Source of the DNA: a virus
Lineage: Duplodnaviria > Caudoviricetes
Direction: 5' to 3' (one strand)
Length of the DNA stretch: 64,000 nucleotides
Virus record (IMG/VR): IMGVR_UViG_3300033073_001493
Span: 4,927 to 68,926 of that record
Within the stretch, counting starts at the first letter, position 1. The number at the start of each line of letters is the position of its first letter. Under the pieces are notes generated by a model. It was not told the DNA's origin. It searched no databases and saw nothing but the letters and a program-made list of their open reading frames with translations. Position numbers and translations under genes: made by a program. Of this stretch, positions 4,612 to 16,644 are shown in pieces.

Positions 4612-5529
4612 ATGGGTGAGAACAGCAACATCTCATGGTGTCACCACACGTTCAACCCGTGGATTGGCTGTGCGAAGGTCTCAGACGGCTGCAAGCATTG
4701 CTACGCCGAGGGAATGCAGCACCGCTTCGGCGGCGGGCTGTGGGGTAGCGACGCGAAGCGTAGGCTCACTGCCGACAGCACATGGCGCCAGCCTCTCTCG
4801 TGGGACCGCAAGGCCAAAGCCGCGGGCGAGCGGCACCGCGTGTTCTGCTCGTCGCTGGCCGACGTGTTCGAGGACCGTGAAGACCTCGCCGAGCCGAGGC
4901 GCAGGCTCTTCCAGCTTATCGAGCAGACGCCGCATCTCGACTGGTTGCTGCTCACGAAGCGACCTCACGACATGGCGCGCCTCGCTCGTGCGGCCGGCTG
5001 GTTCGGGGACTGGCCGAGCAACGTGTGGGCGGGCGCCACGGTCGAGCACCAGAAGGCAGCGGATGCGCGCATCCACGAGCTGCTTCGCGTGCCCGCACGC
5101 ATACACTTCCTATCCTGCGAGCCCATGCTCAGCCCGATCCGGCTCACGTACAGGCTCGGATGCCACGCGGGTAAGGACGGTGAATGCAACTGGCAGCACT
5201 GTCCGCAACTACGCGACAGCGAGCCTGCACGTAGTGGCAGGCACTGCCCGCTAGACTGGTCGTCGCAAGACGATTACGAGAGCCCGCCGCGCATCGACTG
5301 GGTCATCGTGGGTGGCGAGAGCGGGCCGAATGCGCGGCCGTTCGATTTGTTGCACGCGGGGTCGCTCGTGCGCCAGTGCAAGCTGTCCGGCGTGCCCGTG
5401 TTCTTCAAACAGCTCGGCGCCAGCCCGGTGTTTGGCGGCAAGCCGTGGCCCCTCGCACACGACAAGCGAACTGGCGCCGACACGCGCGACTGGCCCGAGT
5501 GGGCCATGGTGCAGGAGGTGCCACGATGA
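4612..5529 (+). CDS. DUF5131 (phage Gp37/Gp68-like) protein
   Basis: ISWCHHTFNPWIGCAKVSDGCKHCYAE (CxxxxxxCxxC), VFCSSLADVF, WLLLTKRP, FLSCEPML, DWVIVGGESG, VFFKQLG. Confidence 0.9.
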   Translation: MGENSNISWCHHTFNPWIGCAKVSDGCKHCYAEGMQHRFGGGLWGSDAKRRLTADSTWRQPLSWDRKAKAAGERHRVFCSSLADVFEDREDLAEPRRRLFQLIEQTPHLDWLLLTKRPHDMARLARAAGWFGDWPSNVWAGATVEHQKAADARIHELLRVPARIHFLSCEPMLSPIRLTYRLGCHAGKDGECNWQHCPQLRDSEPARSGRHCPLDWSSQDDYESPPRIDWVIVGGESGPNARPFDLLHAGSLVRQCKLSGVPVFFKQLGASPVFGGKPWPLAHDKRTGADTRDWPEWAMVQEVPR

Positions 5530-5776: not shown

Positions 5777-6859
5777 ATGACGATCCGCAAGGTGACGAGA
5801 CGGGGCAAGCCCGTGCTGGTCATTGACATCGTGTACCGGGACGCACAAGGCGCCAAGCAGCGCTACCGCCGCGACGCGCAGGTGCAGACCATGACGGCAG
5901 CGCGCGCAGAGGAGCGCCGGCTCATCGGCGACCTCGCCGCGGTGGGCAGCATCGAGCACCACAAGGCGCCTGCCCCGGCACCGGCGACCGCGCCGAGCTC
6001 GGCGCCATCGTGGCAGGCGTCGCTCGATCGCTACCTCGCGGTACGTGGCCCGACGCTCAAGCCGTCGACCCGCAGCGGCTACGAAGAGGTGTCGGCGGCC
6101 ATCCTCACCCCGCGCTGGGGCGAGCGGCCGGTCGACTCGATCGACCACGCCGAGCTGCTCGCGCTCGACGCCTCGCTCGCGTCGCGCGGCGCCTCGTCAT
6201 CGAGGCGGCGCAACGCGCAGATCGTGGCGAGGTCGGTGCTGAAGCACGCGCTGCCTCGCGAGGAGTGGCCCACGTTTCCTCCACTGCCACGGGTGGGCAG
6301 CAAGGTGGTGCGGGCACCGTCGGAGGCAGACGTTGCGCGGCTCATCGAGTTCGCGCCGCCCGCACTCACGCTGCCCATTCTGCTCGCGTACTACGCCGGC
6401 CTGCGCGCTGGTGAGGTGCGGGGGCTCAAGTGGTGCGACATCGACCTGCGCGGGCGCGAGCTGCTCGTGCGCCGAGCTGTCTGCCGTGGTGTCGAGGCGG
6501 CACCGAAGAGTGGATCTGAGCGGCGCGTGCCGCTCGCCGAGGCGCTCTTTGCGGCGCTGTCCAGCGCACGCAGGGGCTCGCCTGATTCGCTCGTCTGCCC
6601 GTCGCCGAAGAGCAAGCGGGTCGAGCGGCCGTGGAGCGAGTGCGCGCTGTCGCGAGCGACGACCAAGCTCGCTAGGCGGCTCGGCCTGCGCTTCAGCTTC
6701 CACGGCCTGCGCCACGCGTTCTGCACCGCGCTCTTTCGGCGCACGACGCCGGCCAACGTGGTGCAGGAGCTGCTCGGCCACAGCAACCTCACCGTGACCC
6801 AGCGCTACGCCCACGCCACATCGGCCGACCGGCGAGCAGCGGTGGCGCTGCTCAACTGA
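5777..6859 (+). CDS. int: Tyrosine recombinase (phage integrase)
   Basis: Catalytic set present: YAGLR (R), APKSG (K), FHGLRH (HxxR), LLGH (H), QRY (Y); AGGAG RBS. Confidence 0.95.
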   Translation: MTIRKVTRRGKPVLVIDIVYRDAQGAKQRYRRDAQVQTMTAARAEERRLIGDLAAVGSIEHHKAPAPAPATAPSSAPSWQASLDRYLAVRGPTLKPSTRSGYEEVSAAILTPRWGERPVDSIDHAELLALDASLASRGASSSRRRNAQIVARSVLKHALPREEWPTFPPLPRVGSKVVRAPSEADVARLIEFAPPALTLPILLAYYAGLRAGEVRGLKWCDIDLRGRELLVRRAVCRGVEAAPKSGSERRVPLAEALFAALSSARRGSPDSLVCPSPKSKRVERPWSECALSRATTKLARRLGLRFSFHGLRHAFCTALFRRTTPANVVQELLGHSNLTVTQRYAHATSADRRAAVALLN

Positions 6860-6871
6860 GGCAACGTGGTC

Positions 6872-7170
6872 GTGGAAACAGCGTGGAAACGCCCTTCGGC
6901 AACGTCGCCACGGTGGCAACAGCACCGTTGGCCAGACTGTGATATCGCGGCCATATTCACGCGGTATCAGCTTGGAGCCACCTTCGGGATTTGAACCCGA
7001 GACCTACGGTTTACGAAACCGCTTCGCGTCCGCAGAGCGCGCCCCCTCCGGAGCAGCGAAAACACGCTGTTTTCTCGACTTGCGAGGGCCAACGGAGGGG
7101 AGCGCTCGGCGGACACGGGAGGACACGGAACGCATGGCAACGACACCCATCGTGGTAACGGAGTGGAAAC
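6872..7170 (+). promoter_or_regulatory. Putative integrase arm-type binding sites flanking attP (RTGGNAAC)
   Basis: GTGGAAAC 6872 and 6883, GTGGCAAC 6913, ATGGCAAC 7134, GTGGTAAC 7152, GTGGAAAC 7163; GGACACGG direct repeat at 7111 and 7121. Confidence 0.65.
6973..7022 (-). other. attP: attP core equal to the 3' half of tRNA-Thr(CGT)
   Basis: Minus strand reads GCGGT-TTCGTAA-ACCGT (anticodon arm, CGT), AGGTC, TCGGG-TTCAAAT-CCCGA (T arm), AGGTGGC-T-CCA; no D arm or 5' acceptor strand upstream; about 110 bp after the int stop. Confidence 0.85.
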
Positions 7171-7201
7171 AGCGAGCTCAGCCGGTGGCCGAGGTGCACC
7201 C

Positions 7202-7570
7202 ATGAGCAGGGTCGTCACCAGCACGCCCTTCGGCGACTACGTGCGGGGTGCGAGGCAGCGCGCCGGGCTCTCGCTGCGCGAGCTGGGCAAGGCGCTCGGC
7301 GTCTCGCACGTCTACGTGAGGGAGGTCGAGTGCGGCCACCGCCCGCCGTTCGTGCGTGAGCGCTGGCCAGCCCTCATGGCGGCGCTGCCCGGCATCACCA
7401 AGTCGGGGCTGGTCTACCACCTCGCGCTGACCGAAGGCGTCACGCTGAGCTTGGCCGACGCGTCGCCTGCGTACCGAGAACTGGCAATCGCGCTCGCCGA
7501 CCCCAGGGCCCGGGAGATTCGAGACGACGATGCGCTCGCCATCCTGAACGTGCTGAGGGGGCGCCAGTGA
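7202..7570 (+). CDS. XRE-family HTH regulator
   Basis: FGDYVRGARQRAGLSLRELGKALGVSHVYVREVECGHRPP. Confidence 0.85.
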   Translation: MSRVVTSTPFGDYVRGARQRAGLSLRELGKALGVSHVYVREVECGHRPPFVRERWPALMAALPGITKSGLVYHLALTEGVTLSLADASPAYRELAIALADPRAREIRDDDALAILNVLRGRQ

Positions 7571-8011: not shown

Positions 8012-9490
8012 ATGACCCAAGCCGCTGCCACACGAGCGTGTGAGCAGTGCGGGCAGTCGTTTCCCTACGAAGGGACGACGCGCCGCTACTGCTCGGAGAG
8101 ATGCCGCTACCGGCACAAGGACCAAGCGCTGCGCTCCAACCCCGAGCGCCACGCGCGGCAGGCCGCGCAGCAGGCCGCGTGGATGGCGGCCAACGTCGAC
8201 TGGCGCAATGCCCGCAGGCGAGAGCGCACGCTGGCGAGGCGGCTCGACGTGCCCGCGACCGAGTGCCTGCACTGCGCCGCCGCGATGCCCGCGCGCAAGC
8301 TCCGGGTCTACTGCTCCGACGACTGCGTGATGGCCGCATGGCGCAAGGCCAAGGCGGCCGAGACGGAGCCTCGCCCCACGCCTGCCCCACGTCGCCGCAT
8401 CGTGACCGTGGCGGGCGAGCGAGAGGCCACCAGCGAGGCGAGCGAGCAGCCTGCCCGGTCGCCCTACGAACTGCCCGCGCCAGACCTTGGCCGCCACGTT
8501 CCCGGCGTCGTGTGCGAGCTGCTGCTGAGCGGCGTGCCCGGCATCGTCGAGCACCGCCACGCGAGGCTGCTGCACGGGCTGCTCTCCCACGCCATCGGCC
8601 GAGACCACGACGCCATGCGGCCGGCCTTCGCGCTCGTGCCCTACGCGCACTGCCGCTCCCAGTGGGCCGTGTGGTGCGCGAGCCACGACGATGCGAGGCG
8701 CCTGCACACGAGCCCCCACGCAGGCACGCTCTTCGGCCGCGACGTGCGCGTGTCGCTCGGCCTGCCCCACCGCGTCCACCTGCCTCGCTACCAGCCCGGC
8801 CGCTACACGGTGCGCATCGACACGGTGACGCTCGTGCACGTCCGCAGCAACGGCACGCACACGCACACGGTCAAGACGGCGCCGACGGCCGAGAGCCTCG
8901 CGAACACGCTGACGACGACGCTCGCCCGCTTTCGCCTGGGGCTCGAGGTCGCGCCGGCCGACCTTGGCCTTGCGCTGCTCTCGCACGAGACGATGCCCGA
9001 CCGGCTGCACACCGGCAGCGAGTCGCACTGGCGCAACGTCGACGACGGCGCTGCGGTGCCCGGCCTGCTCTCGGGATGGGTCGGCACCGTCGTGGTCGAG
9101 GTGAGCGCCGTCGGTCGCACGCTGCTCGAGTGTGCGCGCTGGATGGGGCTCGGTGGCCGCGTGTCGCTGGGGCTAGGCCGCATCGCCGTGCGCGACGTGA
9201 CCGACAGCGCCGAGCGCTCGCGCGCCGTGGGCAGGTTCTTCGTCACGCCGCACGCCGTCGAGCGCTACCGCGAGCGCATCGAGCCCGTGGCCTACGACGT
9301 GGCACTCGGCCGCCTCATTCGCGCATCGGCCGACGCCCGCCTCGCCAAGCGCTACCCCGACGGGCAAGCGCTCTACCGCACGGGCAAGCCAGACCGCCTC
9401 GCCTTCGTCGTCGCGCCGTGTGCCGAGCCCGGCGAGCGCTCTCACGCCATCGTCACGGTTCTCGGCCCGCCAGCAAGGAGCGCAACATGA
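8012..9490 (+). CDS. cas6: Multidomain protein: two CxxC...CSxxC Zn fingers, Cas6-like RAMP domain, C-terminal putative RelE/DUF4258-like domain
   Basis: CEQCG...YCSERC and CLHCA...YCSDDC; central region with RLLHGLL, GWVGTVVVEV and G-rich loop WMGLGGRVSLGLGRI (GhGx5GhG, Cas6 hallmark); C-terminal VTPHAVERYRERI...IVTVL; heads the csf operon. Confidence 0.75.
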   Translation: MTQAAATRACEQCGQSFPYEGTTRRYCSERCRYRHKDQALRSNPERHARQAAQQAAWMAANVDWRNARRRERTLARRLDVPATECLHCAAAMPARKLRVYCSDDCVMAAWRKAKAAETEPRPTPAPRRRIVTVAGEREATSEASEQPARSPYELPAPDLGRHVPGVVCELLLSGVPGIVEHRHARLLHGLLSHAIGRDHDAMRPAFALVPYAHCRSQWAVWCASHDDARRLHTSPHAGTLFGRDVRVSLGLPHRVHLPRYQPGRYTVRIDTVTLVHVRSNGTHTHTVKTAPTAESLANTLTTTLARFRLGLEVAPADLGLALLSHETMPDRLHTGSESHWRNVDDGAAVPGLLSGWVGTVVVEVSAVGRTLLECARWMGLGGRVSLGLGRIAVRDVTDSAERSRAVGRFFVTPHAVERYRERIEPVAYDVALGRLIRASADARLAKRYPDGQALYRTGKPDRLAFVVAPCAEPGERSHAIVTVLGPPARSAT

Positions 9491-10020
9491 ACACCATCGA
9501 CACCCTTCGCTCTTTCGGCGCCTGTGACGATGCACTCGAATGGGCCGAAGATCGACCCGAACAGTCGCCAAACGGGCTTTGGCTAGAGTGCCATCGAGCC
9601 GATTGGCTGCTTTGGTACATGGGCAAACTCGCCGCGCGCGACGGCCACGGCTCCAAAGTTCACCGCCGCGCGGTTTTGATCGCTTGCCTGTGTGCCCGCA
9701 TCGCATCCATCCACTGGCGCGATCCATCGTGCGAGCGTGCCGTGTCGTTGGCTGAGCGGTGGGCTTGGGGCGACAGATCGGTCACGTGCGGGGAATTGCA
9801 CGCCGCCGCTGCTGCCGTTGAATACGCCAACGCTGCCCACTCCGCCGCCGCCTCCGCCGCCGCCACCGCCGGAGACGCCGCCGCTGCTGCCGTTGAATAC
9901 GCCAACGCCGCCTACTCCGCCGCCGCAGACTGCTCTTCCAGAAACGCCGCCGCCCGAGAGGCGCGCCTCGCCTCTCTCGCCGACTTGATCCGTGCTGCCA
10001 TCCCCGAGGTGCCGCTGTGA
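9487..10020 (+). CDS. Ala-rich repeat hypothetical protein between cas6 and csf1
   Basis: AAGGAG RBS, ATGA and GTGA overlaps on both sides; duplicated AAAAAVEYANAA unit. Confidence 0.75.
   Translation: MNTIDTLRSFGACDDALEWAEDRPEQSPNGLWLECHRADWLLWYMGKLAARDGHGSKVHRRAVLIACLCARIASIHWRDPSCERAVSLAERWAWGDRSVTCGELHAAAAAVEYANAAHSAAASAAATAGDAAAAAVEYANAAYSAAADCSSRNAAAREARLASLADLIRAAIPEVPL
9800..9908 (+). repeat. Two perfect 34-nt direct repeats, period 75 nt, inside a CDS
   Basis: ACGCCGCCGCTGCTGCCGTTGAATACGCCAACGC at 9800-9833 and 9875-9908. Confidence 0.9.
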
Positions 10021-11159
10021 TCGCCCCGCCGCCGTCACCGTCGCGGGCCTACTGGCTCGTGTGCGGCTCACCGCACGTCGAGCTCGAGACCGACGCGCCC
10101 GAGGGCGCACGCTGCGCCATCTGCGCCGACGAACTGCGAGGCCGAGGCGTGCCGCTCGCCAGGTCGCCCGTGTCGTTCTGCAACCAGACCAACACGCGCA
10201 TCCCCGCGTCGCCATGGCTCTGCGTGCCGTGCCTGTTCGCAACGCGCTGGATTGCCCCGCCAGGACGTAGCGGCAAAGCCGACGGCGACGATGGCGGGCG
10301 TGGCCCGAACCCCGCCATGTACGGCCACCGCTGGGAACAGCTCGCCGATGGCACTGTGCGCTACGGCAACCACTCGAAGGGCGACAAGGCCGAGCTTCGC
10401 GCGTGGCTTCGCGCGCCGAAGGCTGGCTGGTGGTGGTGCACCATTGCCGACAGCGGCAAGAAGCACACGATCCCCTGGGCGCCCATCAACCACGGCTCGT
10501 CAGCGCAGGCCGCCGTGCTGTTCGACGAGGTGATGATCACCGTCGGCGACCACGCGATGGTCGACGACATCTCGGCGCTGCTCACCAGCGGCGCCACCAA
10601 GGCCAGCGTCGAGTCGGGCCGCTACACCACGGGCGAATACGAGCGATGCGCCCAACACATTGCAGCGTTTGAAAACAGGTGGGGAGCGCAGCGCGGCGGT
10701 GGCTGGTTCGGCCTCGCGGTGTGGCTCGCCCAGCGAGACGAGGCCGCCGTCGCCGCGAGGCTCGACGAGGAGCGCGCGGCCAAGGCCGCCAAGAAGCAAG
10801 CCGAGAGGGAGCGGGCCAAAGCAGACAAGCCCGCCAAGACGAAGACCACGAAGGCCCCACGGGCCGCAAGGAGCAAGAGCGATGATCGACGAGAAGCAGA
10901 AAGAGACGCTGCGGACGCTGACGGTGGAGCTGATGCTCGACCTGCGCAGCCAGTACCTGCGCACGCCGGGGTGCAACGCGCTGACGCACTGGGAGCAGCT
11001 CACGACGAGGATGCGAGCGTGCGCCCGCATGTCGGAGAGCGTCGACGAGTGGGCGACGATGATGCTGCGCCGCCTTCAGATACCGGCGCCCAGCAAGTAC
11101 AGCTCGGACTCTTTGCTGACGCTGAGCCACGCGGTGCGCGAGCTCGGCGCCGCAAGTGA
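10017..11159 (+). CDS. csf1: Type IV Csf1 (Cas8-like large subunit) with basic C-terminal extension
   Basis: N-terminal CAIC...CVPC Zn site; WWWCTIADSGKKHTIPWAPIN matches the Csf1 SxKKH(L/T)xxxxPVN-type motif; upstream of cas11-csf2-csf3. Confidence 0.8.
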   Translation: MIAPPPSPSRAYWLVCGSPHVELETDAPEGARCAICADELRGRGVPLARSPVSFCNQTNTRIPASPWLCVPCLFATRWIAPPGRSGKADGDDGGRGPNPAMYGHRWEQLADGTVRYGNHSKGDKAELRAWLRAPKAGWWWCTIADSGKKHTIPWAPINHGSSAQAAVLFDEVMITVGDHAMVDDISALLTSGATKASVESGRYTTGEYERCAQHIAAFENRWGAQRGGGWFGLAVWLAQRDEAAVAARLDEERAAKAAKKQAERERAKADKPAKTKTTKAPRAARSKSDDRREAERDAADADGGADARPAQPVPAHAGVQRADALGAAHDEDASVRPHVGERRRVGDDDAAPPSDTGAQQVQLGLFADAEPRGARARRRK

Positions 11160-11280
11160 CTGGCTCGAGCTGATCGAGCGCGAGCACGCGCTCCTCATCG
11201 CCATCGCCCGCAAGACCTCCGAAGAGCGCCGCGACCAGCGCGCGTCGGCCGACGAGACCCTGACCCCACAAGAGGTGTGA
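10882..11280 (+). CDS. cas11: Cas11-like small alpha-helical subunit (type IV-B)
   Basis: AAGGAG RBS at 10868; 132 aa, predicted helical (HWEQLTTRMRACARMSESVDEWATMMLRRL); position between csf1 and csf2 as in IV-B loci. Confidence 0.7.
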   Translation: MIDEKQKETLRTLTVELMLDLRSQYLRTPGCNALTHWEQLTTRMRACARMSESVDEWATMMLRRLQIPAPSKYSSDSLLTLSHAVRELGAASDWLELIEREHALLIAIARKTSEERRDQRASADETLTPQEV

Positions 11281-11283
11281 GCC

Positions 11284-12303
11284 ATGTACGAACAGATCCG
11301 CTACGAGTTCATCATCGAGGCGCAAGAGCCCATCGCCCACCACAGCGAGAGCGACGGCAACCAGGCCGTCGCCTTTCGCAAGAAGGTCGTGGGCCCCGAC
11401 GGTGTGGTGCGCCAGGTGCCCATCGTCACCGCCGACACGATCCGCCACGGGCTGCGCGAGGCAGGCACGTTCGCCTACCTCGATGCGGCCGGCCTGCTCG
11501 ACCAGGCGGCGCTCACCGAGTCGGCGCTGCGTCTGTTGTTCAACGGCGGTATGATCACCGGCAAGGGCGGTGACTCGGGCTCGGTCTCGCTCGACGCATA
11601 CCGCGAGCTGGTCGAGCTGATCCCCCACGTCGGCCTGCTCGGCGGCTGCGCCCGCAACCGCTCGATACCCGGCAAGGTGCAGGTGAGCGACGCGCTGCTC
11701 ATCTGCGAAGAGACGCGCCACCGTCTCCAGCCGTGGCAGCGTGACCTGCTGGGCAAGAGGCAGCTCAACTCGCACCGCAGCTACGTCGAGAACGAGCAGC
11801 GTGTGCGCATGGATGTGATGCTCGACCCATCGAAGCGGCGCCTGCTCACGGCAGGCGATCAGGTGCGCGCCACCGGCAAGCTCGCCGCGAGCGAGCGCGC
11901 CAGCGAGACGGGCGACGCCATCGAGAAGGCCGAGGCAAAGAGCAGCATGATGCCCCGCTCGTTCGAGCGCATCGCGCAGGGCTCGCTGTTCATGCTGTCG
12001 ATCGACGCGGTGGTGCAGACGCCGCTCGAGCGAGACGCGCTCGACCTGATGGTCACGGCGTTCGTGACCCGTGGCCGCGTGGGCGGAAAGAAGGGCACGG
12101 GCCACGGCAAGATCGGCGTCTTCGGCGTGGCGCAGGCAGACGGCACGACCGAGTGGGCGGCGCAGATCGTGCCGCTGCTCTCGCCCTCGGAGCACGCGAC
12201 CTCGATCCAGCTCGGCGACCGCGCGTGCGGGCAGATGATGCGAGCCCACGTCGCCAGCAACAAGGATCGCATCAAGACGCTGCTCGACAGGATCGACGCC
12301 TGA
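11284..12303 (+). CDS. csf2: Type IV Csf2 (Cas7-family backbone RAMP)
   Basis: EAQEPIAHH, VPIVTADTIRHGLRE, LLFNGG, LIPHVGLLGGC...IPGKVQVSD, G-rich loop VGGKKGTGHGKI. Confidence 0.9.
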   Translation: MYEQIRYEFIIEAQEPIAHHSESDGNQAVAFRKKVVGPDGVVRQVPIVTADTIRHGLREAGTFAYLDAAGLLDQAALTESALRLLFNGGMITGKGGDSGSVSLDAYRELVELIPHVGLLGGCARNRSIPGKVQVSDALLICEETRHRLQPWQRDLLGKRQLNSHRSYVENEQRVRMDVMLDPSKRRLLTAGDQVRATGKLAASERASETGDAIEKAEAKSSMMPRSFERIAQGSLFMLSIDAVVQTPLERDALDLMVTAFVTRGRVGGKKGTGHGKIGVFGVAQADGTTEWAAQIVPLLSPSEHATSIQLGDRACGQMMRAHVASNKDRIKTLLDRIDA

Positions 12304-13061
12304 TGGCCTCGCGTCGCAAGGGCCCGCAGGCAGCCCCGGCGCAGCACGCCGATGAGCAGCCGGCAGCGCTCCAGACAGCGCCGCCCGCGTGCATGATGGC
12401 GCCCGTGGGCGAGCCTGCGCGCTGTCCCGAGCCGCTGCACGTCGTCGCCCACATTCGCGACAGCATCGTCACGGCGCCCATGCTCGACGCGCTGCTCGCC
12501 TACCACACAGCGCAGCGTGCGGGGCTGCCCATGTGGGCGCGGCCCGACGAGCAGCCGCGTGTCGAGATCCCCATCGCCAGATCGCCATGCGGCAGGTTCC
12601 ACCTTGCCTCTCGGCCGCAGTTCGCGGTGCAGGAGAGCGAGCAGCGGTTCAAGTCGCGGCGCCCCATCGTCGAGCCTGCGCAGCTACTCGCAGGCCCGAG
12701 CGTGCGGCGGCTCGACATCCAGACAGGCGCCAACAAGGGCTTTCGCATCCCGTACAGCACGCACCTCGTCGCGGGCGGCGTCGTGCACTGGTGGTGCATG
12801 GGCGACCGTGACCGCATCGCCGAGATGCTGCGCGGCTGCCTGCACCTCGGCAACAACCGCCGCGTCGGCCACGGCTGGGTCGAGCGCTGGGACGTGCAGC
12901 AAGCCGAGCCCTGGCCAGGCTTCCCGGTCGTGCAAGACGGCCGCCCCCTGCGCGCGCTGCCGCTCGACTGGCCAGGCGTGACCGCTGGCGGCGTTGGCAT
13001 GTCGGCGCTCACCTATCCGTACTGGGCCCCCGAACGAAAGCAGCCGTGCCGTGTGCCGTGA
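12303..13061 (+). CDS. csf3: Type IV Csf3 (Cas5-family RAMP)
   Basis: MLDALLAY, IPIA, WWCMGDRDRIAEML..CLHLGNNRRVGHGWVERWDV (G-rich loop), RALP, YPYW C-terminus. Confidence 0.85.
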   Translation: MASRRKGPQAAPAQHADEQPAALQTAPPACMMAPVGEPARCPEPLHVVAHIRDSIVTAPMLDALLAYHTAQRAGLPMWARPDEQPRVEIPIARSPCGRFHLASRPQFAVQESEQRFKSRRPIVEPAQLLAGPSVRRLDIQTGANKGFRIPYSTHLVAGGVVHWWCMGDRDRIAEMLRGCLHLGNNRRVGHGWVERWDVQQAEPWPGFPVVQDGRPLRALPLDWPGVTAGGVGMSALTYPYWAPERKQPCRVP

Positions 13062-13647
13062 GCATGGCGCGGTGCTCATTGGTCCCCACCGGCTGCTATG
13101 CAGCGACGTGACCACGGGCGCGGTGGGGCGCCTCATGGGCGACGAACTCGCCGATGTCGTCTACAGCGACCCGCCGTGGGGGCCCGGCCTCCTGCGCTGG
13201 TTCTACACGCACGCCAAGATCGACTGCCAGGCGACGTGGGGCTCGTTCCTGGCCGCGTTCTGCGCCGCCGTGGCGACCCACAGAAAGCCCGCCGCGCCCG
13301 TGTTCGTGGAGATGGGGCACGCGTGGACCGACGATCTTGCCGCAGCCATGCTGGCCGTTGGCATCGCCGAGTCGGCGCGGTGGCGCGTCTCCTATGGTTC
13401 GCCCAAGCGCGAATCGGTGCTCTGGTACAGCGGCGCGCCGTTGGCGGGAGACCCGACAGGGCTGCATGGGCGAGCGGTCCCAACATGGGCCCTGTCACGC
13501 GTCGTGCAGGCTGGCGCCGTGGTGCTCGACCCATGCTGCGGAAAGGGCACCACGGCGGCTGTCACGAAGAGGCTCGGCGGCGTGTTTCGCGGCGCCGAGC
13601 TCAATCCCAAGAGGCTTGCCACCACACAGGATGTTCTGAACAGATGA
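13051..13647 (+). CDS. Short beta-class amino (N4-C/N6-A) DNA methyltransferase-like protein
   Basis: Catalytic motif IV YSDPPW N-terminal; SAM-binding VVLDPCCGKGTT...GAELNP C-terminal; about 198 aa; GTG start inferred. Confidence 0.8.
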   Translation: MCREHGAVLIGPHRLLCSDVTTGAVGRLMGDELADVVYSDPPWGPGLLRWFYTHAKIDCQATWGSFLAAFCAAVATHRKPAAPVFVEMGHAWTDDLAAAMLAVGIAESARWRVSYGSPKRESVLWYSGAPLAGDPTGLHGRAVPTWALSRVVQAGAVVLDPCCGKGTTAAVTKRLGGVFRGAELNPKRLATTQDVLNR

Positions 13648-14732
13648 CCGTCATATCCGCCAGCATCATGCATGCGCCATGGGCAACGGCTCGCAAGGCG
13701 CATGTTGCCGCCGCGCTCGATGCGCTCAGGGACGGCGACGACGTTGTGAGCAACTCCGTCGTTGTCGAAGACGCCGAGCGCAGCGGCGTGTGGCCATGCG
13801 GCAAGCGCGCCATACAGGCAGCGCTGTCGCACCAAGACGCGACCCACATACTCGTGCTGCAAGACGACCTGCTGTTCTGCCGGTCGTTCGCCAAGGCGCT
13901 ACGTCTCGTGGTCGACGCCAAACCGGCTCACGTCATCTCGCTCTTCAGCATGAGCCGCGGCGTCGTTCTCGAAGCCAAGACGCGCGGCTCATCGTGGGCG
14001 TGGGGGCCCGATGCCGCCTACGGACAAGCCATTGTGATGCCCGTCGAGATGGCCGCCGACTTCCTGCGCTGGGAGCCAGGCAACATCAGGGACGACTTCC
14101 CCTCCTACGACAACCGCATCGCGACCTATGCGCGCGCGACCGGGCAGGGTGTGTGGGTGCCATGCCCCAACCTCGTCGACCACGCCATGCCCGCTGACTC
14201 GCTGCTCGGCTACAGCAACCGCGTGCGCGTCGCGCGGTGGTTTCTCGGCGACATGGACCCGTCGCTCATCGACTGGCGCGCAGGCGCAGACGACCCGGTG
14301 CGGTGCAGCGGCACCGTGGACTATGGGCGATCGATGGTCGACGCCGGCAAGCTCTCTGGCGTGCCCTGCGCACCAAGGCCGACAGACCCCCTCGCTGCCA
14401 TGATCGCAGAGGCAAGGCGCGACCCGCACCTACGCCGGTGCATCAAGCCTGGCCAGCGTCACGAGCCGCTGCTCTTGCGCGGGCGCATCGTGGGGTTCGT
14501 CACGCCACACGAGCAACGTGAGGGCTGGCGCGCGGGCCCCATCTACGTCACGCCGTCGGCACGCAAGCAAGGCGTCATGCGTGCGTTCTACGAAGCGCAT
14601 CGCGACAGGACATGGCTTGCGGCCATCAAGTCTGACAACGAGGCCAGCGAGGTCGCTCACGAGCGGTGCGGATTCGCGCGGCTGCGAAGGTGCAAGCTCG
14701 GATGGATCTGGCGCAGGGGGTCAACACGATGA
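13644..14732 (+). CDS. GT-A glycosyltransferase-like domain fused to a C-terminal GNAT acetyltransferase
   Basis: HILVLQDDL (DxD-like), YGQAIVMP, YDNRI, VPCPNLVDH; C-terminal GPIYVTPSARKQGVMRAF...DNEASEVAHERCGF fits GNAT motifs A/B. Confidence 0.7.
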   Translation: MTVISASIMHAPWATARKAHVAAALDALRDGDDVVSNSVVVEDAERSGVWPCGKRAIQAALSHQDATHILVLQDDLLFCRSFAKALRLVVDAKPAHVISLFSMSRGVVLEAKTRGSSWAWGPDAAYGQAIVMPVEMAADFLRWEPGNIRDDFPSYDNRIATYARATGQGVWVPCPNLVDHAMPADSLLGYSNRVRVARWFLGDMDPSLIDWRAGADDPVRCSGTVDYGRSMVDAGKLSGVPCAPRPTDPLAAMIAEARRDPHLRRCIKPGQRHEPLLLRGRIVGFVTPHEQREGWRAGPIYVTPSARKQGVMRAFYEAHRDRTWLAAIKSDNEASEVAHERCGFARLRRCKLGWIWRRGSTR

Positions 14733-15562
14733 GCGACGAGCAGCAGAAGGAGCCCATCCTCTCGGCCGACGACTGTGAGGCGTGGGCCTACTGGCGAATG
14801 GTCGCGCTGGTGCATGCCGACACCAAGGCGTTCGCGCGCAAGGTGAAGAGCGCCAAGGACGTGGCGGCGCGCTGGCTAGATGGCTGCAAGCGACCTGCCG
14901 TGTCGTGGTCTGCGGGCAAGGACAGCACATGCATGACGCACCTCATCTGCTGCGAGATGGGGGCACGAGGCATCGTGACGGCGCTGTCGGAGAAGGACGA
15001 CCTCGACTACCCCGGAGAGGAGCAGTACGTGCGCGAGACGGCGGACGCGTGGGGCCTTCGGCTCGAGCTGGTGCGTCCCGAGCAGTCACCGTGGGGATGG
15101 CTCGTCGAGCACCGCCGCGAGCTCGGCGCTGGCAGCGAGATGCACGCGCGCTCGGCAGGGCTCAGCAAGGCGTGCTTCTACGGCGTGATGGAGCAGGCAG
15201 ACCGCGCCTTCGATGGCGTGGCGCTCGGTCTTCGCAGCGAGGAGTCGGGCATCAGGCGCCGGGTGCGCGAGATGCGAGGGCGCTGCTTTCGCCTCGCCTC
15301 CGGGCAGCTACGATGCCTGCCCGTGGCCGACTGGTCGGGGCTCGACGTGTTCGCCTATGCGCACAGCCGCAACATCGAGCTGTTGCCTGTCTACCGCTGC
15401 ATGGCGCTGATGCACGCGCGCGAGCCGTGGCTCATTCGCAAGAGCTGGTGGCTGCCAGGTAGCCACGCCGCGCAGGGCGGCGTCGTGTGGCTGAGGCGCT
15501 ACTACCCGAGCCTCTACGACAAGATGTGCGCGCTCTTCGGCGACACCTGGCAGTACACATGA
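14729..15562 (+). CDS. cysH: CysH/PAPS-reductase-like PP-loop protein (type IV-B signature gene)
   Basis: VSWSAGKDST PP-loop, LGLRSEESGIR, LPVADWSGLDVFAY....LLPVY. Confidence 0.9.
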   Translation: MSDEQQKEPILSADDCEAWAYWRMVALVHADTKAFARKVKSAKDVAARWLDGCKRPAVSWSAGKDSTCMTHLICCEMGARGIVTALSEKDDLDYPGEEQYVRETADAWGLRLELVRPEQSPWGWLVEHRRELGAGSEMHARSAGLSKACFYGVMEQADRAFDGVALGLRSEESGIRRRVREMRGRCFRLASGQLRCLPVADWSGLDVFAYAHSRNIELLPVYRCMALMHAREPWLIRKSWWLPGSHAAQGGVVWLRRYYPSLYDKMCALFGDTWQYT

Positions 15563-16395
15563 GCCGCCACGCCCTGCTCGTCACTGGCAGCCGGTCGCTC
15601 GCGGAAAGTGAAGCGGCGCGCGCGTGGGCGACCGAGCAACTGCGCGGTGTGGTGGGCTCGCTGCCCGATGGCACCGTCGTGCTCACGGGCGGCGCTGACG
15701 GGCCCGATGCGTGGGCGACGTGGATGGCAGAGCAGCGCGGCCTCGCGTGGGTCGAGTGGCACGCCGACGGCTCGCGCTGCTCGAGCCTCGGTGGCCCGTC
15801 ATCGTGGCTGCCACCGCCGCCGCGCGGCGTGGGCACGCCTGTCGTGTGGACGGCACGCGTCGGCTACCGAGGCAGCGACGGGCTCGACGTGACACGCAAG
15901 AGCGCTAGCGCCGACGGCCTGCCATTCGCCCCGTCGTGGGCCATCCTCTCGCCCGAGCTCGACGCCCGTCGCCGTGGCGAGGACGCTGCGGCGCGCTGGC
16001 CTGCCTACGTCGCAGCCTACGAGCACGAGATGCGTGAGAGCGAGCGGCGCGACCCAGGCGCGTGGCAACGGCTGCTCGGTCGCGAGAGCGTGACGCTGCT
16101 CTGCTACTGCACCGACCCGGCGCACTGCCACCGGTCGGTGCTCGCTCGGATGATCGGCGCGCGCGGCGCCCGCGTCTGTGGCGAGCGCCCGTCGCCGCTC
16201 GCGCGCAACGCAGCCATGGTAGACGCCCTCGTGGCGAAGCGCGCGGCAGGCTGGCACGTTGCAGCGCTCGCCCTCGTGGACCGTCGCTCTCGCACGCAGG
16301 GAGCCATGCACACGGTCGGGCTGCTGCGCCAAGCCGGCATCGAGGTCGACGTGCGCGAACGGGGCGAGCTTGGGCAGGTCAGAGCGAGACGCTGA
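15559..16395 (+). CDS. SLOG (YpsA-like) protein with an internal DUF488-like domain
   Basis: LLVTGSRS, VLTGGADGPDAWA and later PLARNAAMV...SRTQGAMHT (SLOG) bracket FAPSW...YVAAYEHEM...VTLLCYC...CHRSVLA (DUF488-like). Confidence 0.7.
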   Translation: MSRHALLVTGSRSLAESEAARAWATEQLRGVVGSLPDGTVVLTGGADGPDAWATWMAEQRGLAWVEWHADGSRCSSLGGPSSWLPPPPRGVGTPVVWTARVGYRGSDGLDVTRKSASADGLPFAPSWAILSPELDARRRGEDAAARWPAYVAAYEHEMRESERRDPGAWQRLLGRESVTLLCYCTDPAHCHRSVLARMIGARGARVCGERPSPLARNAAMVDALVAKRAAGWHVAALALVDRRSRTQGAMHTVGLLRQAGIEVDVRERGELGQVRARR

Positions 16396-16458
16396 GCCAG
16401 TCGAGCGAGATCGTGTCGCCTGCACGCAACTGGCGCCGCTGGTGGCCGATAGGAGGGC

Positions 16459-16644
16459 ATGACCGACCGAGACGACATGCCCACCCTCGACTGCCCTGCC
16501 CCCACCTGCACCGTGCTCTGGGAGGGCCCAGCGCGCCGCCTGGAGGTCTGGACGACGGGAGCCGAGCGCGTGGCCGTGGTGATCGAGCAGGGCGAGCCGG
16601 CGCTGGTGGCCAGGCTGCCGAGGCGACGGACGCAGGCGAAATAG
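16459..16644 (+). CDS. Small hypothetical protein
   Basis: AGGAGG RBS; 61 aa. Confidence 0.45.
   Translation: MTDRDDMPTLDCPAPTCTVLWEGPARRLEVWTTGAERVAVVIEQGEPALVARLPRRRTQAK

Follow-up and report, generated by a model that had tools for sequence, protein, structure and literature searches.

The stretch of viral DNA considered here (Duplodnaviria; Caudoviricetes), referred to as the window, is 64,000 nucleotides long and covers positions 4927–68926 of the 68.9-kb IMG/VR record IMGVR_UViG_3300033073_001493, which has an estimated completeness of 79%. The window has a GC content of ~69% and contains a type IV-B CRISPR-Cas operon in which two genes lie between csf3 and cysH. The first encodes a minimal beta-class S-adenosylmethionine (SAM) methyltransferase (MT) and the second a 362-amino acid (aa) protein in which a GT-A glycosyltransferase (GT) is fused to a GNAT acyltransferase (GT::GNAT). 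On balance, the evidence leans towards MT and the fusion being accessory enzymes of a variable phage modification island that has merged into the IV-B operon. The usual core of such an island would consist of a minimal MT, an IbrA-like PP-loop enzyme and an IbrB-like ParB/helix-turn-helix (HTH) protein.

Type IV-B is a CRISPR-Cas subtype of unknown function, and discussion has centered on CysH and on possible links to DNA modification (PMC8175902, PMC7038947). No CRISPR array has been described for the subtype, cysH is its nearly invariant accessory gene, and epigenetic or restriction-modification-related roles have been speculated (PMC8175902, PMC7038947). The published descriptions of IV-B consulted, in reviews and surveys, name no link to a methyltransferase, GNAT, glycosyltransferase or IbrA/IbrB, and an archaeal-virus paper mentions IV-B and stand-alone methyltransferases separately. 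In the window and about a dozen relatives, csf-cysH lies directly against a second system of the PAPS-reductase family, IbrA/IbrB, and its methyltransferase, acyltransferase and other enzymes, in some cases interleaved in one operon. In the literature as far as searched, this is the first lead from synteny by which a specific family of modification enzymes is tied to IV-B and CysH, and the locus offers a concrete gene set toward the function of both. What is new here is a IV-B operon that seems to have taken in part of a modification island of the IbrAB type and carries a one-off GT::GNAT fusion.

The methyltransferase and the GT::GNAT fusion

Both genes are on the plus strand, MT at 13051–13647 and GT::GNAT at 13644–14732. 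Long spurious open reading frames (ORFs) are common at such GC content, and the reading frames were therefore assigned from plots of GC content at third codon positions (GC3). The GC3 was 0.81–0.90 in the frame of MT (13000–13600) and 0.75–0.90 in the frame of the fusion (13600–14650). Because MT has 84 homologues and the GT domain alone matches 1503 cluster representatives at E ≤ 1e-3, the two ORFs are real genes and not chance ORFs. A megablast search with positions 12000–16500 returned no near-identical DNA among isolated phages or plasmids.

The MT is 198 aa long if it starts at GTG 13051, in which case it overlaps the csf3 stop codon by 11 nt. Judging from the better fit to homologue N-termini, a start at GTG 13072 (191 aa) is more likely. 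The MT stop and the fusion start share ATGA at 13644–13647, and the fusion stop and the cysH start share ATGA at 14729–14732. The overlapping stop and start codons imply co-expression of the two genes with Csf. The first-pass annotation of this DNA had described a methyltransferase of ~198 aa with DPPW followed by DPCCGxG and little room for a target-recognition domain (TRD), a 362-aa protein with a GT-A-like LQDD motif and a C-terminal GNAT, flanking csf3 and cysH genes, and translational coupling to both. The motif positions, coding signal and codon overlaps bear out this description, the coupling to csf3 resting on the GTG 13051 start. The flanking genes are as annotated, with matches to TIGR03116 (1e-10, below the curated cut-off) and PAPS_reduct (8e-11), respectively.

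The motifs of MT are DPPW at residues 40–43 and DPCCGKG at residues 160–166, with 116 residues between them. Motif IV is N-terminal to motif I, and both are invariant in 29 aligned relatives. The 84 homologues are ~200 aa long (nearly all 190–225 aa), and DPPW, D-P-C-x-G-x-G and E183 are invariant among them. Many have a precomputed PF01555 (N6_N4_Mtase) match, and the window MT itself matches PHROG DNA-methyltransferase families. A tblastn search with MT against isolated phages gave no match at 1e-5.

An AlphaFold (AF2) model of MT, built from the homologue alignment, has a predicted local distance difference test (pLDDT) score of 96 and a complete seven-strand SAM-methyltransferase core. The position of the TRD is occupied by a loop of ~14 residues (128–141) leading from strand 120–127 to helix 142–149 before motif I, and a separate TRD between the catalytic strands and motifs X/I was not found in the model. 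A Foldseek search with the model returned M1.HpyAVI at the top (E = 6e-11), followed by CcrM, M.BceJIV, MboIIA, TTHA0409, PvuII and RsrI; the matches to M1.HpyAVI, CcrM, M.BceJIV, MboIIA, PvuII and RsrI span 6e-11 to 1e-6. MT-A70-type RNA and DNA enzymes were lower-ranked matches. The MT family profile, run against solved structures, matches the same beta-class chains. M1.HpyAVI, a DNA adenine methylase, is dimeric and active, and its short TRD, of ~31 residues, is disordered (PMC5173035); beta-class enzymes are generally dimers in which recognition and catalysis are divided between the subunits (PMC7544214). As modelled, the reduction of the TRD in MT is real and goes beyond that of the smallest relative with a solved structure. 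The reduced TRD foreseen in the first-pass annotation is thus supported, and it is not unique, M1.HpyAVI having a short TRD as well. Because M1.HpyAVI is active with a short TRD, the missing TRD alone implies neither RNA guidance nor any other external guide.

In the fusion, LQDD lies at residues 72–75, of which QDD (73–75) falls on the family consensus VLQDD. The GT domain (residues 1–250; 13644–14393, plus strand) matches PHROG 854 'glucosyltransferase' at 1.5e-12. It matches no Pfam family, and 2 of its 34 relatives match Glyco_tranf_2_3 weakly. The top-ranked cluster representatives are mostly stand-alone proteins of ~215–280 aa. The AF2 model of the fusion has a pLDDT >90 over residues 1–180 and of ~70–83 in the GNAT part. 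Foldseek searches with the GT part returned the GT-A enzymes Mimivirus R655, GnT-I, LH3/COLGALT1 and ppGalNAc-T2 at E-values of 2e-8 to 1e-4. The model thus predicts a GT-A fold with a DxD-type motif, and its acceptor is not inferable from the fold matches.

The GNAT part comprises residues ~250–362 (domain taken as 251–362; 14394–14732, plus strand) and was recognized by Pfam GNAT families below cut-off, by orthologue alignment and by matches to hidden Markov models (HMMs). The Pfam matches are weak (6e-4 to 6e-3; 19.9 bits vs a cut-off of 22.7). The GNAT orthologue of a related locus, L008, is above the Acetyltransf_1 cut-off (23.7 vs 20.7 bits), and this family is matched by all five GNAT-bearing rows of the alignment (the window fusion and four stand-alone orthologues). 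Motif A reads RKQGVM in the window vs R-G-R-G-L in the orthologues. The alignment of the C-terminal part of the fusion with the stand-alone mini-GNATs found after MT in L002, L006, L008, L009, and L011 starts at the first residues of that part. By this alignment, the C-terminal domain is the predicted orthologue of the stand-alone GNAT of ~110 aa that follows MT in related loci. In a length-limited search the full 362-aa fusion had one match besides itself, a stand-alone GT of 244 aa with 51% identity, and at the level of sequence the fusion is found on this contig only. The closest MT homologue and the stand-alone GT are encoded on one 64-kb contig. The coding signal is unbroken across the GT/GNAT junction in the GC3 plot of the assembled contig. 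The simplest history would be insertion of a GT gene between MT and GNAT followed by loss of its stop codon.

Neighbourhoods of the methyltransferase family and of type IV-B loci

A scan with the MT alignment yielded 67 loci on viral contigs and 8 in a genome collection. Family HMMs made from orthologous genes were run on all stop-to-stop ORFs of every locus. Where the downstream flank was 3 kb or longer (60 MT loci), an IbrA-like and/or IbrB-like gene was present in 56. Where the upstream flank reached that length (49 loci), csf2 or csf3 was present in 12 and no csf gene in 37. The IbrA-like protein consists of PAPS_reduct and DUF3440 (phrog_2302 at 1.5e-77), and the IbrB-like protein is ParB-like with a C-terminal HTH (phrog_2159 at 3e-43). 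A 4-nt overlap between the MT stop and the following start is seen in many loci. The enzymes found beside MT, mostly between MT and the IbrA-like gene, are variable and include a GNAT of ~125 aa (Acetyltransf_1, 8e-9), a class-I methyltransferase, a GT from the family of the window GT, a second MT paralogue and a radical-SAM enzyme (L007). MT is therefore part of a phage island with several enzymes and a variable make-up. In a maximum-likelihood tree of 60 MT sequences, 39 rows with IbrA/IbrB only form a clade (support 98/93) apart from a group of 21 rows, which contains the window and all 14 csf-linked rows. Genes for IbrA-like and IbrB-like proteins and for protein X of related loci had no match in the 68.9-kb record of ~79% completeness. 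A search for relatives of protein X gave sub-threshold leads only.

Several further observations were made on these loci. The second MT paralogue (~195 aa) has an intact motif I (GDFxCGYG) and carries EPPY, EPSW, ELSW or EMAW at motif IV. It was seen at L004:10573-11199, L016:4538-5122, L018:4305-4892 and about 15 other loci, and suggests a pairing of catalytic and non-catalytic subunits as in other beta-class dimers. In the csf-linked locus L007 (10567–12060), the gene after MT encodes a 497-aa radical-SAM enzyme (Radical_SAM_N2 and Radical_SAM), and no cysH was found within 10 kb. Among cellular genome assemblies, the closest MT relatives (L072–L074) are on short contigs of Myxococcota/Deltaproteobacteria metagenome-assembled genomes with the order csf2-csf3-(cysH)-MT-X, a hint as to which hosts this group of phages may infect. 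The best plasmid matches of the window Csf2 are from Mycobacteriales, unlike the Myxococcota relatives of MT.

From the IV-B side, two scans with Csf2 alignments gave 33 phage IV-B loci; these come from related phages, and their counts are not independent events. MT was present in 9, IbrA/IbrB-like genes without MT in 4, and neither in 20, which have only (Cas6 fusion)-csf1-cas11-csf2-csf3-cysH. The IV-B loci of the JS623 plasmid, a structurally studied system, and of Gordonia plasmids, as well as Skermania phage SPI1, contain csf2-csf3-cysH and no MT. The association of MT with IV-B is facultative in both directions, and MT, unlike cysH, is not a majority accessory of IV-B loci. In the phage IV-B loci L081, L083, L106, and L107, csf3-cysH is followed by IbrB-like and IbrA-like genes, in reversed order and without the minimal MT; L106 and L107 additionally have a GNAT.

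The protein encoded by the cysH-like gene, the sole PP-loop enzyme of the window, has an SxGKDS PP-loop (with invariant G-K-D-S) and a GLRxxES motif. It belongs with the CasCysH proteins of type IV-B, and the cysH family HMM also matches the cysH genes of plasmid IV-B loci. It is shorter than IbrA and is without DUF3440. In MT-GNAT-cysH loci, CysH takes the same position as the IbrA-like gene in MT-GNAT-IbrA-IbrB loci.

A parallel was reached by searching isolated phages with the IbrA-like protein. In Microbacterium phage Hendrix (NC_047977; L103), gp155–gp158 at the right genome end (94205–97753) are annotated as glucosyltransferase, methyltransferase, N-acyltransferase and PAPS reductase. 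The glucosyltransferase is a homologue of the window GT at 24% identity (E = 8e-8), the acyltransferase has GNAT motif A in common with the window, and the PAPS reductase is of the IbrA type (3e-86 with the IbrA-like family HMM). The csf HMMs had no match in the 4.7-kb Hendrix region examined. That the same four activities recur there speaks more for a modification pathway centred on a PP-loop enzyme than for a methylase guided by RNA.

These counts bear on the function that the first-pass annotation had considered for the two genes. It had proposed that specificity may come from the Csf ribonucleoprotein (RNP), as RNA-guided methylation; this is not supported, with 37 of 49 MT loci lacking csf and 24 of 33 IV-B loci lacking MT, and a mechanistic dependence of MT or the fusion on the Csf RNP is not indicated. 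Homologues independent of csf genes, found in those 37 loci, make up one half of what it had named as speaking against its proposal, and the result extends to that half. Co-occurrence in other IV-B loci was borne out for 9 of the phage loci and failed for the other 24 and for the plasmid loci. Its second proposal, a modification pathway with CysH, fares better: the MT family is almost always found with a PP-loop enzyme of the PAPS-reductase family and CysH sits in the position of IbrA, which is indirect evidence.

In the favoured reading, one phage lineage would have come to carry the island against, or interleaved with, its IV-B csf-cysH operon. In the phage of the window MT and GNAT would then have been left between csf3 and cysH, with IbrA and IbrB gone from the record, and a common stand-alone GT-A glycosyltransferase would have entered by insertion and become an in-frame fusion with the GNAT. 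By analogy with other beta-class enzymes, MT would methylate adenine N6 as a homodimer, most likely on DNA, and would have either low intrinsic sequence specificity or a specificity supplied by partner proteins. The GNAT and GT domains may attach or process acyl groups and sugars, either on the substrate of MT or on one akin to it, and the PP-loop enzyme, here CysH, may supply an ATP-dependent activation step. A Mom-like role in DNA acylation was also considered for the GNAT.

Weighing of the alternative readings

Several observations sit uneasily with an origin of MT and the fusion as mere island accessories. The match of MT itself to PF01555 (1.7e-5) covers the C-terminal 41 residues only and scores 25.3 bits vs a gathering cut-off of 26.7. 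MT, GNAT and IbrAB genes abut or interleave csf-cysH in at least eight gene orders. These are csf3-MT-GT::GNAT-cysH in the window, csf3-MT-GNAT-cysH in L006, csf3-MT-radical SAM in L007, csf3-cysH-MT-(GNAT)-X-IbrA-IbrB in L009–L011 (and in L073 and L074 as far as the short contigs reach), csf3-Cas6 fusion-MT-(GNAT)-X-IbrA-IbrB-cysH in L002 and L003, csf3-MT-X-IbrA-IbrB-cysH in L021, csf3-MT-IbrB-IbrA-GNAT-cysH in L111, and a scrambled order in L008. The adjacency spans GC contents of 52–75% and two Csf2 clades that are ~20–25% identical, and across orders, GC and clades it exceeds a single accident of ancestry. In addition, the window, L006, and L007 have an intact MT beside csf and no IbrA/IbrB. 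The partners are therefore not strictly needed, and a Csf- or CysH-linked role is possible; in the window, IbrA and IbrB could lie in the missing part of the incomplete record.

The alternative that draws most on these points is that the IV-B RNP and CysH use MT, GNAT and GT as effectors, the RNP replacing IbrB and CysH replacing IbrA, in an RNA-scaffolded or RNA-guided system. The wedging of MT-GNAT between csf3 and cysH, where stop codons overlap start codons in the window as in L006, the occupation of the IbrA-like gene's place by CysH, and an MT without a TRD are consistent with it. So is the frequency of the association, with 13 of the 33 phage IV-B loci adjoining MT and/or IbrA/IbrB-like genes vs IbrA-like genes in 213 of 50,697 isolated phage records. 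However, 20 of the 33 phage loci and the plasmid IV-B loci are without any such genes, most MT loci are without csf, and beta-class methylases with a minimal TRD work without an RNP. Phages also keep accessory genes in shared hot spots by the integrase and repressor, the loci are kindred, and such hot spots could explain part of the adjacency. Overall, this alternative is unlikely. A wider form of it, in which IV-B is functionally tied to IbrA/IbrB islands, with CasCysH as the counterpart of IbrA, the Csf RNP standing for IbrB and the window set forming an RNA-scaffolded nucleic-acid modification machine, is more doubtful still; if true, such a machine would supply the effector activity that type IV-B has so long been missing.

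It is also improbable, and more so than an effector role under the Csf RNP, that the set forms a pathway on a target other than DNA bases, such as an RNA, a protein or a small molecule derived from a nucleotide, which the PP-loop enzyme would activate and MT, GNAT and GT decorate. Hendrix has the four activities with a methyltransferase of another class, which suggests that the chemistry counts for more than a DNA-recognising methylase. The nearest solved folds of the GT-A domain are protein- and glycan-modifying transferases, and RNA N6-methyladenosine enzymes of the beta-class fold are among the weaker Foldseek matches of MT. The last gene of the cluster, which contains DUF488-N3a, has a weak DUF4326 match pointing to a clade within the rhodanese-phosphatase superfamily for which action on ADP-ribose-derived phosphates has been proposed (PMC9503650). 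Against this, MT finds its best matches, by sequence as by fold, exclusively among DNA amino-methyltransferases, it is usually partnered by a DNA-binding protein of the ParB/HTH kind, and fusions of ParB with a methyltransferase are reported to be common among phages (bioRxiv 10.1101/2025.10.10.680097).

That MT and GT::GNAT are decaying, functionless leftovers of a lost IbrAB island is very improbable: the absence of IbrA, IbrB and protein X from the record and the uniqueness of the fusion would fit, but the catalytic motifs are intact, the frames open, the coding signal strong and the translational coupling tight, and L006 keeps the MT-GNAT-cysH order at ~50% protein identity.

The operon and its known relatives

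The following genes of the region are on the plus strand. An integrase (5777–6859) and an HTH repressor-like gene (7163–7570) are followed by a Cas6-like fusion gene (8012–9490) with a weak CRISPR_Cas6 match, which lies upstream in the same operon. The operon continues with csf1 (from 10017), cas11 (about 10882–11280), csf2 (11284–12303; TIGR03115 at 5e-10, below the curated cut-off) and the Cas5-like csf3 (12393–13061, with the start uncertain between 12300 and 12393 and the stop TGA at 13059–13061), which was also matched by phrog_34599 and the family HMM. MT and the fusion are followed by the cysH-like PP-loop gene (14729–15562; 277 aa) and by the DUF488-N3a-containing gene (15559–16395; PF22751 at 9e-15), which is the last of the cluster.

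The csf1 ORF (in the frame of 10017) is open to 11159, and its coding signal and homology end near 10750–10880. The csf1 and cas11 ORFs (the latter at 10882–11280) overlap by ~280 nt in different frames, and L006 and L007 are similar (250–300 nt); a genuine overlap, a frameshift site or a frame that stays open by chance at high GC could each account for this. An ORF of ~178 aa with moderate coding signal (9484–10020) fills the gap between the Cas6 fusion and csf1; it had no Pfam family match, and no relatives were detected in related loci. Stand-alone short ORFs that consist only of the C-terminal domain of the Cas6 fusion (residues ~390–485) recur adjoining the MT island, at L004:9708-9968, L005:3192-3317, L007:12066-12296, L076:6612-6863 and L106:14122-14358. 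A DUF5131 protein (8e-68; phrog_2045) is encoded near the integrase in the window (4612–5529) and in L008 (5323–6228), a distant relative bearing csf and MT.

Among known systems, the IV-B loci of plasmids such as pMYCSM02 of Mycobacterium sp. JS623 have the same csf1-cas11-csf2-csf3 set and cysH as the window, and the window Csf2 is ~30% identical to plasmid Csf2 proteins over the N-terminal half. The window differs in being phage-borne and in having a Cas6-like fusion gene and the MT, GNAT and GT genes, which the plasmid loci examined do not have. The phage IbrA/IbrB cassettes (PHROGs 2302 and 2159) are named after IbrA/IbrB of E. coli. Close relatives of the window carry MT-(GNAT)-X-IbrA-IbrB beside the same csf genes, whereas the window itself is without IbrA and IbrB.

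The closest parallel to MT alone is M1.HpyAVI (PDB 5HEK/5HFJ), its best fold match with a template modelling score of 0.68–0.70, which shares the order of motif IV before motif I, a D-P-P-aromatic motif and the lack of a separate DNA-binding domain. The two proteins are ~16% identical in sequence, and MT is smaller (191–198 aa vs solved chains of 232–240 residues), with ~14 residues in the TRD position vs the disordered ~31 and with a motif IV–I spacing of ~116 residues vs roughly 150–160, the latter being an alignment estimate. The gene of M1.HpyAVI has no PP-loop/ParB pair beside it. The enzyme set as a whole is paralleled by Hendrix. This phage is unlike the window in its 331-aa methyltransferase of another class, its DUF3440 reductase and its separate GT and GNAT genes, and it is like the window in combining the four enzyme activities in one co-directional cluster.

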